In this document: positions 25,000 to 28,554 of the stretch, one piece after another
Layout of the letters: each line of letters begins with the position of its first letter
Numbering within the stretch: position 1 is the stretch's first letter
Assembly: GCA_004284765.1 (NCBI GenBank)
Contig: NQJD01000014.1
Span: forward strand, 1 to 32,000
DNA from: Candidatus Electronema aureum
GTDB taxonomy: Bacteria; Desulfobacterota; Desulfobulbia; Desulfobulbales; Desulfobulbaceae
Length of the DNA stretch: 32,000 nucleotides
Direction of reading: 5' to 3'
Notes under the pieces: model-generated
What the model saw: only the letters and a program-made list of their open reading frames with translations
What the model was told of the DNA's origin: nothing
Databases searched by the model: none
Program-made: the position numbers and the translations under genes

Positions 25000-25881
25000 T
25001 TAGATGCCTATCGGCGGCTCTAAATTAGAGTAGTTCTCAAAACTGGTGTATTCGCCGACAAAAGTCAGCTTCACCGTCCCTGTCGGGCCGTTGCGCTGCT
25101 TGGCGACAATCACCTCAGCAATCCCCCTGTTCGGGTTCTCCGGCGACTTGTTATAGACCTCGTCTCTGTAAATAAATAGAACTACATCAGCAGTCTCCTC
25201 AATTTCACCGCTTTCCCGCAGATCCAACATCGTGGGCCGCTTGTCGGTGCGGCTTTCCAAGCTGCGGTTGAGCTGCGACAGGGCCAGCACCGGCACATTC
25301 AGTGCTTTGGCCATCGCCTTGAGCGAGCGCGAGATTTCGCTGATCTCCTGATTGCGGTTTTCACAGCCGGAGGAACGGCTCTGCATGAGCTGAAGATAAT
25401 CAACCACCAGCAAGCCCAGATCGTGCTCCTCTTTCAACATTCTGGCCTTAGCTTGCATTTCCAGTACGCTGATGCTTGCTGTGTCATCAATAAAAAGCGG
25501 TGATTCAGTGAGCATCCCGGTGGCTCTGGTCAGCTTGGGCCAGTCCGATTCCATAAGATGGCCTGTGCAGATGCGATGAGAATCCACCTTGCCAATAGCG
25601 CAGATCATACGCAAGGCAAGCTGCTCTGCCGACATCCCTAGACTGAACACGGCGGTAGGCACTTTGCCGTCCACAGTGGCGTGCTGGACGATGTTCATTG
25701 CCAAGGCGGTCTTTCCTAAGCCCGGCCTTGCTGCGATAATGATCAGATTGGAAGATTGCAGCCCGGCAGTCATCCGGTCCAATTCATGATAACCAGTGGC
25801 CACGCCAGTGCGGTCAAAGGCTCTGAGCAGGATATTGGCCATCGGCTCAAAGCCCTGCTTATTGGTCTGTTCTTTTTTCAT
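25000..25881 (-). CDS. DnaB-like protein consisting only of the C-terminal RecA-type ATPase domain (intein-free paralogue of the adjacent dnaB)
   Basis: 293 aa, starting 6 nt after the dnaB stop. It aligns with dnaB residues ~173-397 plus 816-888 (roughly three quarters identical by eye). Walker A (ARPGLGKTA), Walker B (VVDYLQLM) and SQLNRSLESR are kept, but SLEMS has become SLGMS and SGAIEQDADV has become SGEIEETADV. The N-terminal domain is absent. Confidence 0.8.
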   Translation of the reverse strand: MKKEQTNKQGFEPMANILLRAFDRTGVATGYHELDRMTAGLQSSNLIIIAARPGLGKTALAMNIVQHATVDGKVPTAVFSLGMSAEQLALRMICAIGKVDSHRICTGHLMESDWPKLTRATGMLTESPLFIDDTASISVLEMQAKARMLKEEHDLGLLVVDYLQLMQSRSSGCENRNQEISEISRSLKAMAKALNVPVLALSQLNRSLESRTDKRPTMLDLRESGEIEETADVVLFIYRDEVYNKSPENPNRGIAEVIVAKQRNGPTGTVKLTFVGEYTSFENYSNLEPPIGI

Positions 25882-25887
25882 GATGCT

Positions 25888-28554
25888 TCAGCCGAATGAA
25901 TCCCCGTGCGGCGGCTCCCGGTCAGTGTAGTTCTCGAATGAGGTGTATTCGCCGACAAAAGTCAGCTTCACCGTTCCTGTCGGGCCGTTGCGCTGCTTAC
26001 CAACAATCACCTCGGCTATACCACGATTGGGGTTTTCTGGTGCTTTGTTATAAACCTCATCCCTGTAAATAAACATAATAACATCAGCATCTTGCTCTAT
26101 TGCGCCCGAATTATGACTGACAATACCGTCCGCTAACCAGCAAGCATTACCCGGTACGGTCAGATCAAAAACCTCTTCTTCGCCCGCAGGTTCAATCGCA
26201 ACGATCTTGTCCCAAAACAGATCATCTTGCGTCAGACTGAACAGCCATTCGTCATCCAAGTGTTTAGCATAACTCAAGACGCTTTCCCGCGATGGAGCAA
26301 ATTTGAAACTTGCTGTCCCGTTGTACGATCTGCCTCGCAATTCCGCCATCTGACGGGATGTTATGCCCTTCAAGCGCATCTGCTCACGAATATAGACAAA
26401 AATTTCCTCCGGCAGCGTATCAACGTTGGTATTGCTGACCGTGTGTTCAATCATGGCCGCAGCCTGTTCAGCAGGCTCTTTGCGCGGCCCGAATGCGCCG
26501 ATCTCCCGAAGGAAAATACGCTGCTGTTCCGCCCCAGAAACATCAGCAGTGAACCAACCTTGCGGACTTTCAGTCGTGGTGACATGCTTGATGCGTGCGA
26601 CAATGCCGAAACGCAGAAGCAGGGCGGCAACATCGCGGATCAGCAGTTCACTGGCAGTGCAGAAGTAGATGCGTGGCTTGTCCTTGCCAGCATGAATGCT
26701 GCCATCCGTCGCCCAGAGATGGCGAAGAAACAAGGTCAATTGTTTCTTAGGCAGCCGGAACACGCCCACAGGCAAATATTTCTCATGCGAACGCTGGCCG
26801 AAGATACCCAAATCCTTGAGCCATTTACCGACCCCCGCCGGATGCCAGCGGTTGCCGTTGCCGCTGATAACCAACTGATGCCAGTTTCCTCGTCCGGGCT
26901 GACGATTGACAGTGGAGCCGAACGCTTGTGCTGCTTCCGTGACCGCTTGGCTGTTCTCCTCGCTGGCTGTGGTATAGCGCAGCGGTTGTTTTGTAACATA
27001 GCTGCCATCACCAACCAAATGCGCCAGCAGGATAATTTCATGTTCAGGCCATGCAACCGTCTGCGGTGGTTCTGGTAGGTGGCGGGCAAGAGCGATGCGG
27101 TCGCCAATCTGAAGATCACAGGCATGTTTCCAGTCTGTCAATGAACGTAAGCGATGCTCTTTGGAACAACACAGGGTGCGTCCGCTGGCCAGCTGAATCC
27201 GCAAAATTTCCTTTTGACCGACAGACCAGACTAATTCAGCAGCGGCGCATTCTATCCTTCCGTCCTCCGTCATTGAAACGACAGAGGGTCTTTGCCCGAC
27301 CAAATCGCGAACAGGAATCCGACTGCCGTCGGCCAGCATGACCAAGGTGTCGCCGGTCACGCATTCACGCAAATCCGACATCATGGGTCGCTTGTCGGTG
27401 CGGCTCTCTAAGCTGCGGTTGAGCTGAGACAAAGCCACTACCGGCACGTCTAACTCTTTCGCCATTGCCTTAAGCGAGCGAGATATCTCACTGATTTCCT
27501 GATTCCGATTCTCAGAGCCGGAACGCCCCTGCATCAGCTGAAGATAATCCACCACTACCAACCCTAAATCATGCTCTGATTTCAGCCGCCGAGCTTTGGC
27601 CCGCATCTCCAAAACAGTCAAACCAGCAGTATCATCAATGTAGATCGGCGCGTCTGTAAGCATCCCCGTGGCCCTGATGAGCTTAGGCCAATCCGACTCT
27701 ATCAAGCGGCCTGTGCGAACGCGTTGCGCATCCACCTTACCTACAGCGCAGAGCATTCTCAGAGTCAGTTGTTCGGAGGACATTTCCAAGCTGAACACGG
27801 CGGACGGTATCTTATTGATTACCGAGGCTGTCTGCACAATGTTCATGGCCATCGCGGTCTTACCCATCGACGGTCGTGCCGCGAGAATGACCAAATCTGA
27901 AGGCTGTAGCCCAGCGGTCATCCGATCTAATTCCTCGTAACCAGTGGCCACGCCGGTAATATGCTCTTTGCGCTGAGAAAGGCGCGTCACCCGATCAAAA
28001 GCCTTAGGAACGATTCGAGCCATCGACTCGAACCCCTGCTTCTTACGGGCTTGAGCAATTTCAAAAATCGACTGCTCGGCTTTGTCAACCAGTGCGTCAA
28101 TGTTATCTTGGGCATCGTAGCAACGGGCTGCTACTTCAACGCTGGTTTGAATCAGTTTGCGCAGAACAGATTTTTGCCGGATGATATGGGCATGATGAAC
28201 CAGCGTTCCAACAAAGGGAATTACTTCGGTAAGCTGGGAGATGTAGGCATATCCTCCTGCCTTCTCTAACCGATTCTGATCACGGAGCAGATTGGAGACG
28301 GTAATCAGGTCGTGAGGCTGTCCTTTTTCAAACAGGGAAAGCATAGCCCCAAAAACGATCCGATGACCTTCTCGGTAGAAATCATCAGGCGCAAGCAGCT
28401 CAACAACTTTGAGCAGAGCTTGTTCCTGAATCATAATGGTACCGAGCAAAGCCTGCTCGGCTTCCACGTTCTGAGGCGGCAGACGGCCTGCTGCCGACTG
28501 TTCATGCCCGCTGCGGACGAAGGGAACGGAATAGTCAGACAACTGAGACATCAC
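25888..28554 (-). CDS. dnaB: replicative DNA helicase DnaB, interrupted by a 418-aa intein
   Basis: 888 aa in total. After removing the intein the extein is 470 aa. It contains ...PPQNVEAEQALLG..., ARPSMGKTA, SLEMS, VVDYLQLM, SQLNRSLESRTDKRPMMSDLRE|...|SGAIEQDADVIMFIYRDEVY. Confidence 0.95.
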   Translation of the reverse strand: MMSQLSDYSVPFVRSGHEQSAAGRLPPQNVEAEQALLGTIMIQEQALLKVVELLAPDDFYREGHRIVFGAMLSLFEKGQPHDLITVSNLLRDQNRLEKAGGYAYISQLTEVIPFVGTLVHHAHIIRQKSVLRKLIQTSVEVAARCYDAQDNIDALVDKAEQSIFEIAQARKKQGFESMARIVPKAFDRVTRLSQRKEHITGVATGYEELDRMTAGLQPSDLVILAARPSMGKTAMAMNIVQTASVINKIPSAVFSLEMSSEQLTLRMLCAVGKVDAQRVRTGRLIESDWPKLIRATGMLTDAPIYIDDTAGLTVLEMRAKARRLKSEHDLGLVVVDYLQLMQGRSGSENRNQEISEISRSLKAMAKELDVPVVALSQLNRSLESRTDKRPMMSDLRECVTGDTLVMLADGSRIPVRDLVGQRPSVVSMTEDGRIECAAAELVWSVGQKEILRIQLASGRTLCCSKEHRLRSLTDWKHACDLQIGDRIALARHLPEPPQTVAWPEHEIILLAHLVGDGSYVTKQPLRYTTASEENSQAVTEAAQAFGSTVNRQPGRGNWHQLVISGNGNRWHPAGVGKWLKDLGIFGQRSHEKYLPVGVFRLPKKQLTLFLRHLWATDGSIHAGKDKPRIYFCTASELLIRDVAALLLRFGIVARIKHVTTTESPQGWFTADVSGAEQQRIFLREIGAFGPRKEPAEQAAAMIEHTVSNTNVDTLPEEIFVYIREQMRLKGITSRQMAELRGRSYNGTASFKFAPSRESVLSYAKHLDDEWLFSLTQDDLFWDKIVAIEPAGEEEVFDLTVPGNACWLADGIVSHNSGAIEQDADVIMFIYRDEVYNKAPENPNRGIAEVIVGKQRNGPTGTVKLTFVGEYTSFENYTDREPPHGDSFG
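26110..27363 (-). mobile_element. DnaB intein with LAGLIDADG homing-endonuclease domain
   Basis: It starts with CVTGDTLV directly after ...SDLRE (Cys codon at 27363-27361). It ends with ...FDLTVPGNACWLADGIVSHN, followed by the +1 Ser (Asn codon at 26112-26110). The two LAGLIDADG blocks are LLAHLVGDGSY and FLRHLWATDGSI. The sequence resembles the Rhodothermus/Synechocystis DnaB inteins as I remember them. Confidence 0.9.

Follow-up and report, generated by a model that had tools for sequence, protein, structure and literature searches.

The 32,000-nucleotide stretch of Candidatus Electronema aureum DNA analysed here (contig NQJD01000014.1, positions 1 to 32,000; the window) carries, directly behind the gene for the replicative helicase DnaB, a second and shorter open reading frame (ORF) at 25000-25881 on the minus strand, which we call DnaB-C. 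Comparison with its relatives indicates that DnaB-C is a member of a small family of tandem DnaB paralogues with no domain but RecA, a family restricted by lineage and maintained by selection yet dispensable. As to its role, we lean, with confidence falling just short of even, towards a DnaB-associated, nucleotide-binding and, in this genome, non-hydrolysing modulatory subunit that would act on the DnaB ring.

The ORF is intact, encodes 293 residues and starts (ATG at 25879-25881) 6 nt past the dnaB stop codon (TGA at 25888-25890), just where a first-pass annotation made from the letters of the window had placed it. A Pfam scan showed that DnaB-C covers the DnaB_C profile fully (positions 1-255 of 255, E 3.6e-105) and found no DnaB N-terminal domain (PF00772) in its 293 residues, while that domain is present in the adjacent dnaB. 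From the linker to the C-terminus DnaB-C is collinear with the spliced DnaB, with 225 of 292 residues identical (77%), and it lacks 11 linker residues, VTRLSQRKEHI. Walker A (GLGKT), Walker B (VVDYLQL) and the motif H3 Gln (SQLNR) are retained in invariant columns, and its AKQRNGP aligns with the AKQRNGP of Geobacillus stearothermophilus (Bst) DnaB, which DnaB-C matches with an E-value of 1e-92. Among the stretches in which it departs from dnaB are SGEIEETADVVLFIYR, SLGMSAEQLALR and the N-terminus. The first-pass annotation had described this anatomy correctly, down to the RecA-only domain content, the long identical runs, the missing 11 residues, the retained motifs, the altered motifs (SLGMS where dnaB has SLEMS, SGEIEETADV where it has SGAIEQDADV) and the codons at the site equivalent to that of the dnaB intein; its statement that the two genes are near-identical in DNA at their 3' ends went too far, as the final 30 aligned codons share 88% identity and show a proportion of synonymous differences (pS) of 0.38. 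The parts of DnaB-C referred to below are as follows.

25000-25881, minus strand: DnaB-C, a shortened linker plus the RecA/C-terminal domain of DnaB; intact 293-aa ORF, seen in Pfam, alignment and orthologues.
25882-25887, minus strand: 6-nt spacer between the dnaB TGA and the DnaB-C ATG; the junction ggcTGAagcatcATGAAAAAAGAACAGACC is conserved and has an A7 run.
25810-25851, minus strand: linker-helix remnant FEPMANILLRAFDR, with the second half and the connector VTRLSQRKEHI deleted (alignment).
25708-25722, minus strand: Walker A / P-loop GLGKT, with G56, K57 and T58 invariant (alignment).
25636-25638, minus strand: codon GGG, Gly82 replacing the catalytic Glu of motif H1a; aligns with Bst DnaB E241.
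25540-25542, minus strand: Trp114 in the docking helix DWPKL, an invariant column; equated with Vibrio cholerae DnaB Trp291 by motif, not by structural alignment.
25183-25212, minus strand: the SGEIEETADV signature (A226E, Q229E, D230T), just past the RESG loop, at the intein-site equivalent.
25093-25101, minus strand: K261-Q262-R263, the beta-hairpin lysine and arginine fingers (Bst K418/R420), kept (alignment to 2r6a/4esv).

We rejected an assembly artefact as the source of the second gene, because the exact protein is also encoded on a 2.94-Mb contig and the junction recurs in independent assemblies; its difference from dnaB at 23% of residues counts against an artefact as well.

To place DnaB-C among its relatives we searched 5.8 billion clustered proteins, in which the nearest proteins were chromosomal DnaBs of Candidatus Electronema and other Desulfobulbaceae at 70-79% identity, and the short form made up seven clusters of 290-349 aa (P0001, P0002, P0003, P0005, P0007, P0018 and P0030). 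There are seven distinct copies, all with intact ORFs and separated from one another by 0.36-1.5 synonymous substitutions per site (dS); the window, the incomplete assembly of Electronema sp. JC (G092) and two separate metagenome contigs are extra sightings of the same seven. The order rplI-dnaB-DnaB-C recurs on the relatives' contigs, and DnaB-C lies behind dnaB in at least six Electronema lineages other than that of the window genome (G000). The dnaB upstream of the copy is intein-less in L034 (468 aa), in L036/L037 (474 aa) and in 'Desulfobulbus sp. F1' (F1, locus L035), where it is frameshifted in that assembly and where the locus matches the window at 96.3% identity across 3.6 kb, while in UBA5173 (G088, locus L041) it contains two inteins. 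The contigs of L038 and L039 reach only the 3' end of dnaB, and the part present in L039 covers the DLRE/SG site (slash, insertion point) and holds no intein. G092 likewise has an intein-less dnaB, its assembly breaking inside the repeat, and over the available 5' part its full-length DnaB matches P0004, the same pair as in L034. Scanning the genome contigs with a DNA signature for further members returned only G088 and G092, a looser pattern run on metagenome contigs gave three unrelated matches and no new member, and a protein search with the N-terminal 45 residues alone added none. We confine claims of a tandem copy to the genus Electronema; a scan of 400 genomes of the phylum gave mostly one match per genome, with second matches unlisted. 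One further protein limited to the C-terminal domain (CTD), P0080 (292 aa), was rejected as a paralogue, as it is the sole dnaB of its genome (G014), split by an in-frame TAG.

DnaB-C arose a single time, in the freshwater cable-bacterium genus Candidatus Electronema, when the stretch of dnaB for the linker and RecA domain was duplicated in tandem. This conclusion follows from a junction and a start that the copies have in common and from the way in which they group in trees of separate gene segments. The shared junction reads ggc-TGA-agcatc-ATGAAAAAAGAACAGACCAAxAAGCAGGGC, giving the start MKKEQT(N/K)KQ(G/D), and the form TGA-(6-8 nt)-ATGAAAAAAGAACAGACC is common to six of the seven lineages (G000, F1, G088, L034, L039 and L038); in L036/L037 five A's of the A-run are gone and the start is the next conserved in-frame Met. 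In the 5'-segment tree the paralogues lie on one side of a branch (support 68/68), in the signature-segment tree six of the seven stand together (94/92), and both groups are nested among the Electronema dnaB genes. Genomes with a copy are spread across three of the subclades of the genus in a tree of the DnaB N-terminal domain, a part that DnaB-C lacks; DnaB-C therefore is either as old as the genus and was lost several times, or it passed between species through homologous recombination.

On repeated occasions gene conversion has replaced the middle and the 3' end of DnaB-C with sequence of the dnaB beside it. In sliding windows, columns 158-290 of the L034 copy are 99-100% identical to its own dnaB and columns 178-268 of the F1 copy 93-97%, while over the last 30 codons the L036 copy is 100% and the G088 copy 96% identical to the dnaB beside it. 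The mid-segment tree accordingly pairs the F1 copy with the full-length gene of G000 (100/99), the L034 copy with the L034 dnaB (99/95) and the G088 copy with the G088 dnaB (94/94); the frameshifted dnaB of F1 was left out of the trees, and the near-identical gene of G000 stands in for it. The direction observed is from dnaB to the copy. DnaB-C of the window is the least converted, with no recent tract and no 90-nt window in which it matches its own dnaB at more than 84-88%. Conversion tracts from dnaB stop next to the signature patch, yet the patch survives.

Purifying selection acts on DnaB-C and is real, as conversion does not explain it. Compared with the spliced dnaB of the window, DnaB-C gave a ratio of non-synonymous to synonymous change (omega) of 0.07, a value obtained with synonymous sites saturated (pS 0.70), and the proportion of non-synonymous differences (pN) was 0.13 against a pS of about 0.69-0.70. 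Over the whole domain omega was 0.07-0.21 from copy to copy and 0.03-0.16, with a median near 0.07, from dnaB to dnaB. When only unconverted stretches were compared, it was 0.22 between the G000 and F1 copies (30.5 non-synonymous differences over 392 sites and 36.5 synonymous over 124; Fisher p against neutrality 1e-8) and 0.285 between the L034 and L039 copies (p 3e-4); the dnaB genes gave 0.046 for G000-F1 and 0.073 for L036-G087. With omega values of 0.07-0.29 and a presence in at least six other lineages, rather than the dN/dS near 1 and absence from all relatives that the first-pass annotation had named as speaking for a recent neutral duplication, its view that DnaB-C is no decaying pseudogene holds.

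The few residues that set the copies apart from dnaB are D45N, A61S/M62L, I71N, V78I, D195N and, standing out most, A226E, Q229E/D and D230T. These last three form the signature: in 21 of 21 full-length relatives the positions are A226, Q229 and D230 without variation, and in six of the seven paralogues they are E, E (or D) and T. The exception, L038, reads SGAIEQDSDV and groups with full-length dnaB in the signature segment, so that its signature appears to have been converted back to the dnaB type. As E226, E229 and T230 persist against an invariant A/Q/D and against adjacent conversion tracts, they point to a constraint specific to the paralogue. By alignment with Bst DnaB the patch lies directly after RESG (R381/E382/G384), the loop that binds single-stranded DNA (ssDNA) in the BstDnaB-ssDNA structure. 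At H1a, F1, G088, L036 and L038 keep the Glu, G000 and L034 have Gly (GGG) and L039 has Ala (GCG), against Glu in 113 of 113 full-length relatives. The linker helix is full-length in five other copies and shortened in G000 and F1. Loss of the Glu and of half the linker is thus, by these alignments, a feature of the window genome's lineage and not of the DnaB-C family. The GKT, DYLQL, SQLNR and KQRNGP motifs and the DWPKL docking helix all occupy invariant columns. Bst K418 and R420 serve as the lysine and arginine fingers (PMC8421360; bioRxiv 2024.11.09.622779), and the docking helix binds the neighbour's linker helix (LH) and the DciA loader, with V. cholerae DnaB Trp291 at the interface of LH and docking helix (DH) (PMC13696075). 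Judged by its residues, DnaB-C of the window thus seems capable of binding nucleotide and of offering its fingers and docking helix to neighbours, and incapable of hydrolysing ATP itself or of contacting a neighbour through its linker.

The signature patch of DnaB-C lies at the equivalent of the site where the intein of the upstream gene is inserted. The two features concerned are the following.

25888-28554, minus strand: dnaB, full-length replicative helicase with one intein, 888 aa (Pfam DnaB, DnaB_C, Intein_splicing and LAGLIDADG_3).
26110-27363, minus strand: LAGLIDADG intein of 418 aa (aa 398-815) in DLRE/SGAIEQ, at the ssDNA-binding loop of DnaB (spliced alignment and the empty site of F1).

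By several comparisons, this intein is an active mobile element within Electronema. Between G000 and G088 the intein has a dS of 0.17 and the exteins one of 1.36, which argues that the window intein arrived recently, and a C-extein tract of about 120-150 nt beside it is 92-100% identical between these two genomes (window 25903-27363 compared with L041 and L035). F1, the 96%-identical relative, has an empty site at the precise intein position, and all six copies of the intein have both LAGLIDADG motifs, with omega 0.04-0.2. At the equivalent site DnaB-C reads CTG CGG GAA / AGC GGT GAA ATT where dnaB reads TTG CGT GAA / TCG GGC GCA ATA. The first-pass annotation had treated the AGC Ser codon as a peculiarity of the copy, and this did not stand: the Ser codon after the site (window 26107-26109) is TCN in five of six intein-bearing and AGY in five of six intein-less full-length dnaB genes, a pattern that resembles a small co-conversion footprint moving together with the intein, AGC in DnaB-C being, on this comparison, simply the intein-less state.

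Independently of DnaB-C, a second intein was seen in the Walker A motif of five Electronema dnaB genes, at L041 (G088), L044 (G087), L045 (G089), L046 (G090) and L049 (G094). Its junctions read SMGK / AQPLD...VVTHN / T(A/S)L, with Ala rather than Cys or Ser as the first residue, and given this start it may be of class-3 type. It is long with an endonuclease-sized insert in G088 and G090, somewhat shorter in G087 and much shorter in G089 and G094. All four combinations of the two dnaB inteins occur in the genus, the window dnaB having no Walker A intein.

Between dnaB and DnaB-C we found no terminator and no convincing promoter, the only promoter-like match nearby (9 of 12 positions) lying inside DnaB-C at chance level, and the stop-to-start distance of 6-8 nt suggests translational coupling. 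The start at window 25870-25881 consists of the ATG and the A7 run (ATGAAAAAAGAA), a homopolymer that could make expression of the long N-terminus prone to slippage. Among the papers covered by a literature search, none treats cable bacteria together with DnaB.

Taken together, these features are what lead us to favour a modulatory subunit of the DnaB ring. Most likely DnaB-C would be co-transcribed with dnaB and translated by restart 6-8 nt past the dnaB stop; in the window genome the protein would bind nucleotide without hydrolysing it and join the C-terminal tier of the DnaB ring, as a mixed-ring subunit or docked on the ring, where it would modulate ring opening, loading or unwinding without being a helicase itself. 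We place it in the ring because the parts that would seat it there (GKT, DYLQL, SQLNR, KQRNGP and the docking helix) are kept. An ATPase-impaired subunit or regulator was also among the suggestions of the first-pass annotation and is our best reading for the window genome; the Glu loss, however, is not family-wide, as four of the seven copies keep SLEMS. Several observations weigh against a modulatory subunit. Six of the nine other species-level Electronema genomes, G087 (closed), G089, G090, G091, G093 and G094, are without DnaB-C, and it is dispensable for that reason. The constraint on dnaB is 3-5 times stronger, each copy has 10-15 replacements at 153 CTD columns that are invariant in 21 full-length relatives, and changes that differ by lineage fall near catalytic or DNA-binding residues (E82G/A, R52S, P53L, Y162C and E223K/D). 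Nearly every lineage has an indel or duplication of its own in the linker, the part that holds DnaB rings together: it is deleted in part in G000 and F1, duplicated in G088 and followed by a partial second linker in L034 and L039. There is no good Shine-Dalgarno sequence before the DnaB-C ATG, one lineage (L036/L037) has lost the first start, and the supplementary tables of two cable-bacteria expression studies contain no DnaB or helicase rows. Finally, the AlphaFold2 (AF2) monomer model of DnaB-C, built from a 28-sequence alignment, shows a RecA-like alpha/beta fold with a moderate confidence score (pLDDT 68.8, below 50 for the first 42 residues).

Much of this would also be expected if DnaB-C were a nearly neutral leftover with no function of its own, which looks constrained through overwriting by dnaB and is heading for loss between direct repeats, an account we regard as rather unlikely although it is the strongest of the alternatives. 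It would explain the large and recent conversion tracts and the mid-segment tree in which copies pair with their own dnaB, the variable linker, the key residues hit differently by lineage and an omega several-fold above that of dnaB. It also fits the six absences, as no remnant of DnaB-C was found in the spacers between dnaB and leuS (or another next gene) of those genomes; the loss is scarless there, and recombination between direct repeats would remove DnaB-C in just this way. Against it, omega is 0.22-0.29 and significantly below 1 in stretches free of conversion, and DnaB-C of the window, which has no conversion tract, keeps an open frame with pN far under pS. The copies have kept their start region and the three signature replacements, the opposite of what conversion from dnaB would do, and none of the seven distinct copies is broken.

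That DnaB-C is instead a device or by-product of the intein, born from aberrant repair of a homing cut or kept as an endonuclease-resistant spare or template for the C-terminal half of dnaB, we consider the least probable of the accounts weighed here. The genus does have a mobile intein, with the low intein dS, the near-identical C-extein tract and the intact LAGLIDADG motifs described above, and DnaB-C, from which the intein is absent, is uninvaded in both genomes that have a copy together with an endonuclease-bearing intein. Of the 30 bases flanking its site, roughly a third differ from those of the intein-less, susceptible dnaB alleles, so that resistance to the endonuclease is plausible and the immunity proposed by the first-pass annotation is compatible with the data. 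Immunity is not needed, however, to account for the site, whose changes are amino-acid replacements rather than silent ones, lie at invariant DnaB positions and are kept in intein-free genomes too. An origin as a by-product of homing, also put forward there, is not supported, in view of the single junction, of the recent arrival of the intein and of the presence of DnaB-C behind an intein-less dnaB in four lineages (F1, L034/G092, L036/L037 and L039). All six genomes without a copy bear inteins, so a copy is not needed beside them; conversion runs from dnaB to the copy; and a spare lacking the N-terminal domain could not replace DnaB. On this evidence DnaB-C appears independent of the intein. 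An autonomous RecA-core motor, which would form hexamers of its own and serve repair or recombination outside the replisome as a helicase or translocase, seems to us very doubtful. Four of the seven copies have every catalytic motif including the Glu, the ring-forming linker helix is complete in five lineages, and the N-terminally deleted phage protein Wildcat gp80 unwinds DNA in vitro (PMC4523182), but the catalytic Glu is gone in the window genome and two other lineages and the linker helix is short in the window genome and F1. Moreover, the changed patch adjoins the ssDNA-binding loop, one residue of which, E223, is K or D in two copies, and the tight linkage to dnaB with ongoing exchange fits a partner better than an independent enzyme. 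Going further than the modulatory subunit that we favour, one may picture a two-component replicative helicase in which a non-catalytic RecA-only subunit inserts in or caps the DnaB ring to regulate loading or fork progression, the missing linker helix in the window genome then providing a built-in 'cracked' interface; this we hold to be quite unlikely. The role of replacement helicase loader was rejected, as the window genome already has a DciA gene elsewhere.

DnaB is normally a single-copy homohexamer, and DnaB-C compares with it (E. coli, G. stearothermophilus and V. cholerae; TIGR00665, PF00772 plus PF03796) in its complete RecA domain, motifs and docking Trp, and differs in having no primase-binding collar domain, no full linker and, here, no catalytic Glu, and in A226E/Q229E/D230T. 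It cannot be the replicative helicase because a full dnaB, the sole other DnaB gene present, is adjacent: a search of the window genome found no further DnaB, the only other match being a RadA-like gene on contig C11 with 22% identity. Shorter or non-hydrolysing protomers share a ring in the 56- and 63-kDa forms of T7 gp4 and in F1-ATPase, where the silent alpha subunit gives an arginine finger; in T7 the shorter, catalytically active form is translated from a start inside the same gene, and F1 alpha and beta are obligatory and universal. Unlike these, DnaB-C is a separate gene, dispensable in most of the genus, and its co-assembly is putative. RadA/Sms and KaiC are DnaB-like RecA cores with other tasks, which DnaB-C matches weakly (E 1e-4), whereas DnaB-C is a recent derivative of dnaB itself. 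RecA-core-only or truncated DnaB-family proteins of mycobacteriophages have the same architecture, a core without the N-terminal domain. Bhowmik and Das Gupta (2015, PMC4523182) report that Wildcat gp80 truncated at its N-terminus still works as a helicase, with a changed dependence on ATP. Those proteins are engineered or belong to distant phages, in contrast to DnaB-C, a natural chromosomal gene in tandem with dnaB and Glu-less here; it is no member of the phage clade, its nearest relatives being the dnaB genes of its own genus, among which the segment trees nest the copies.

The wider locus reads, on the minus strand, rpsF, rpsR, a DUF2232 membrane protein, rplI, dnaB, DnaB-C and leuS, and the window dnaB scores 986 bits against NCBIfam PRK07773. 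Elsewhere in the material, dnaB is split between the N-terminal domain and the linker (..ALVD / AE(K/Q)TIFEIAQ) in two genomes of other genera of the family, at L017/L040 (G014, GCA_024280455) and L022 (G100), by an in-frame TAG in one genome and a 1-nt loss in an A-run in the other; it is the sole dnaB in each, and assembly error is possible, leuS also being split in L040. The dnaB-leuS spacer of G093 (L048 4690-5120) and G091 (L047 3640-4165), two genomes without DnaB-C, is 400-500 nt long and consists of an array of a roughly 20-nt unit (..GCCGA..AAGGAGTT..), after which the array recurs in inverted form (..AACTCCTTT..GGC..); the arrangement hints at a long, imperfectly palindromic repeat element.

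DnaB-C scores 395.1 bits against NCBIfam TIGR00665, above the equivalog cut-off of 385.25, and its relatives are labelled 'replicative DNA helicase' in public records, so that automatic annotation yields two apparent dnaB genes per genome. The locus offers a compact case, in one essential gene of one genus, of tandem duplication with mosaic conversion, scarless loss and two mobile inteins. If DnaB-C were a leftover after all, it would illustrate how conversion from an essential neighbour keeps a duplicate looking healthy. As a natural experiment, a DnaB protomer selected without its N-terminal domain would bear on the workings of the RecA tier by itself, on the effect of inactive protomers in a hand-over-hand ring motor and on the control of ring opening, and a two-component helicase, if true, could provide a handle on how growth and replication are switched between the cells of one filament.

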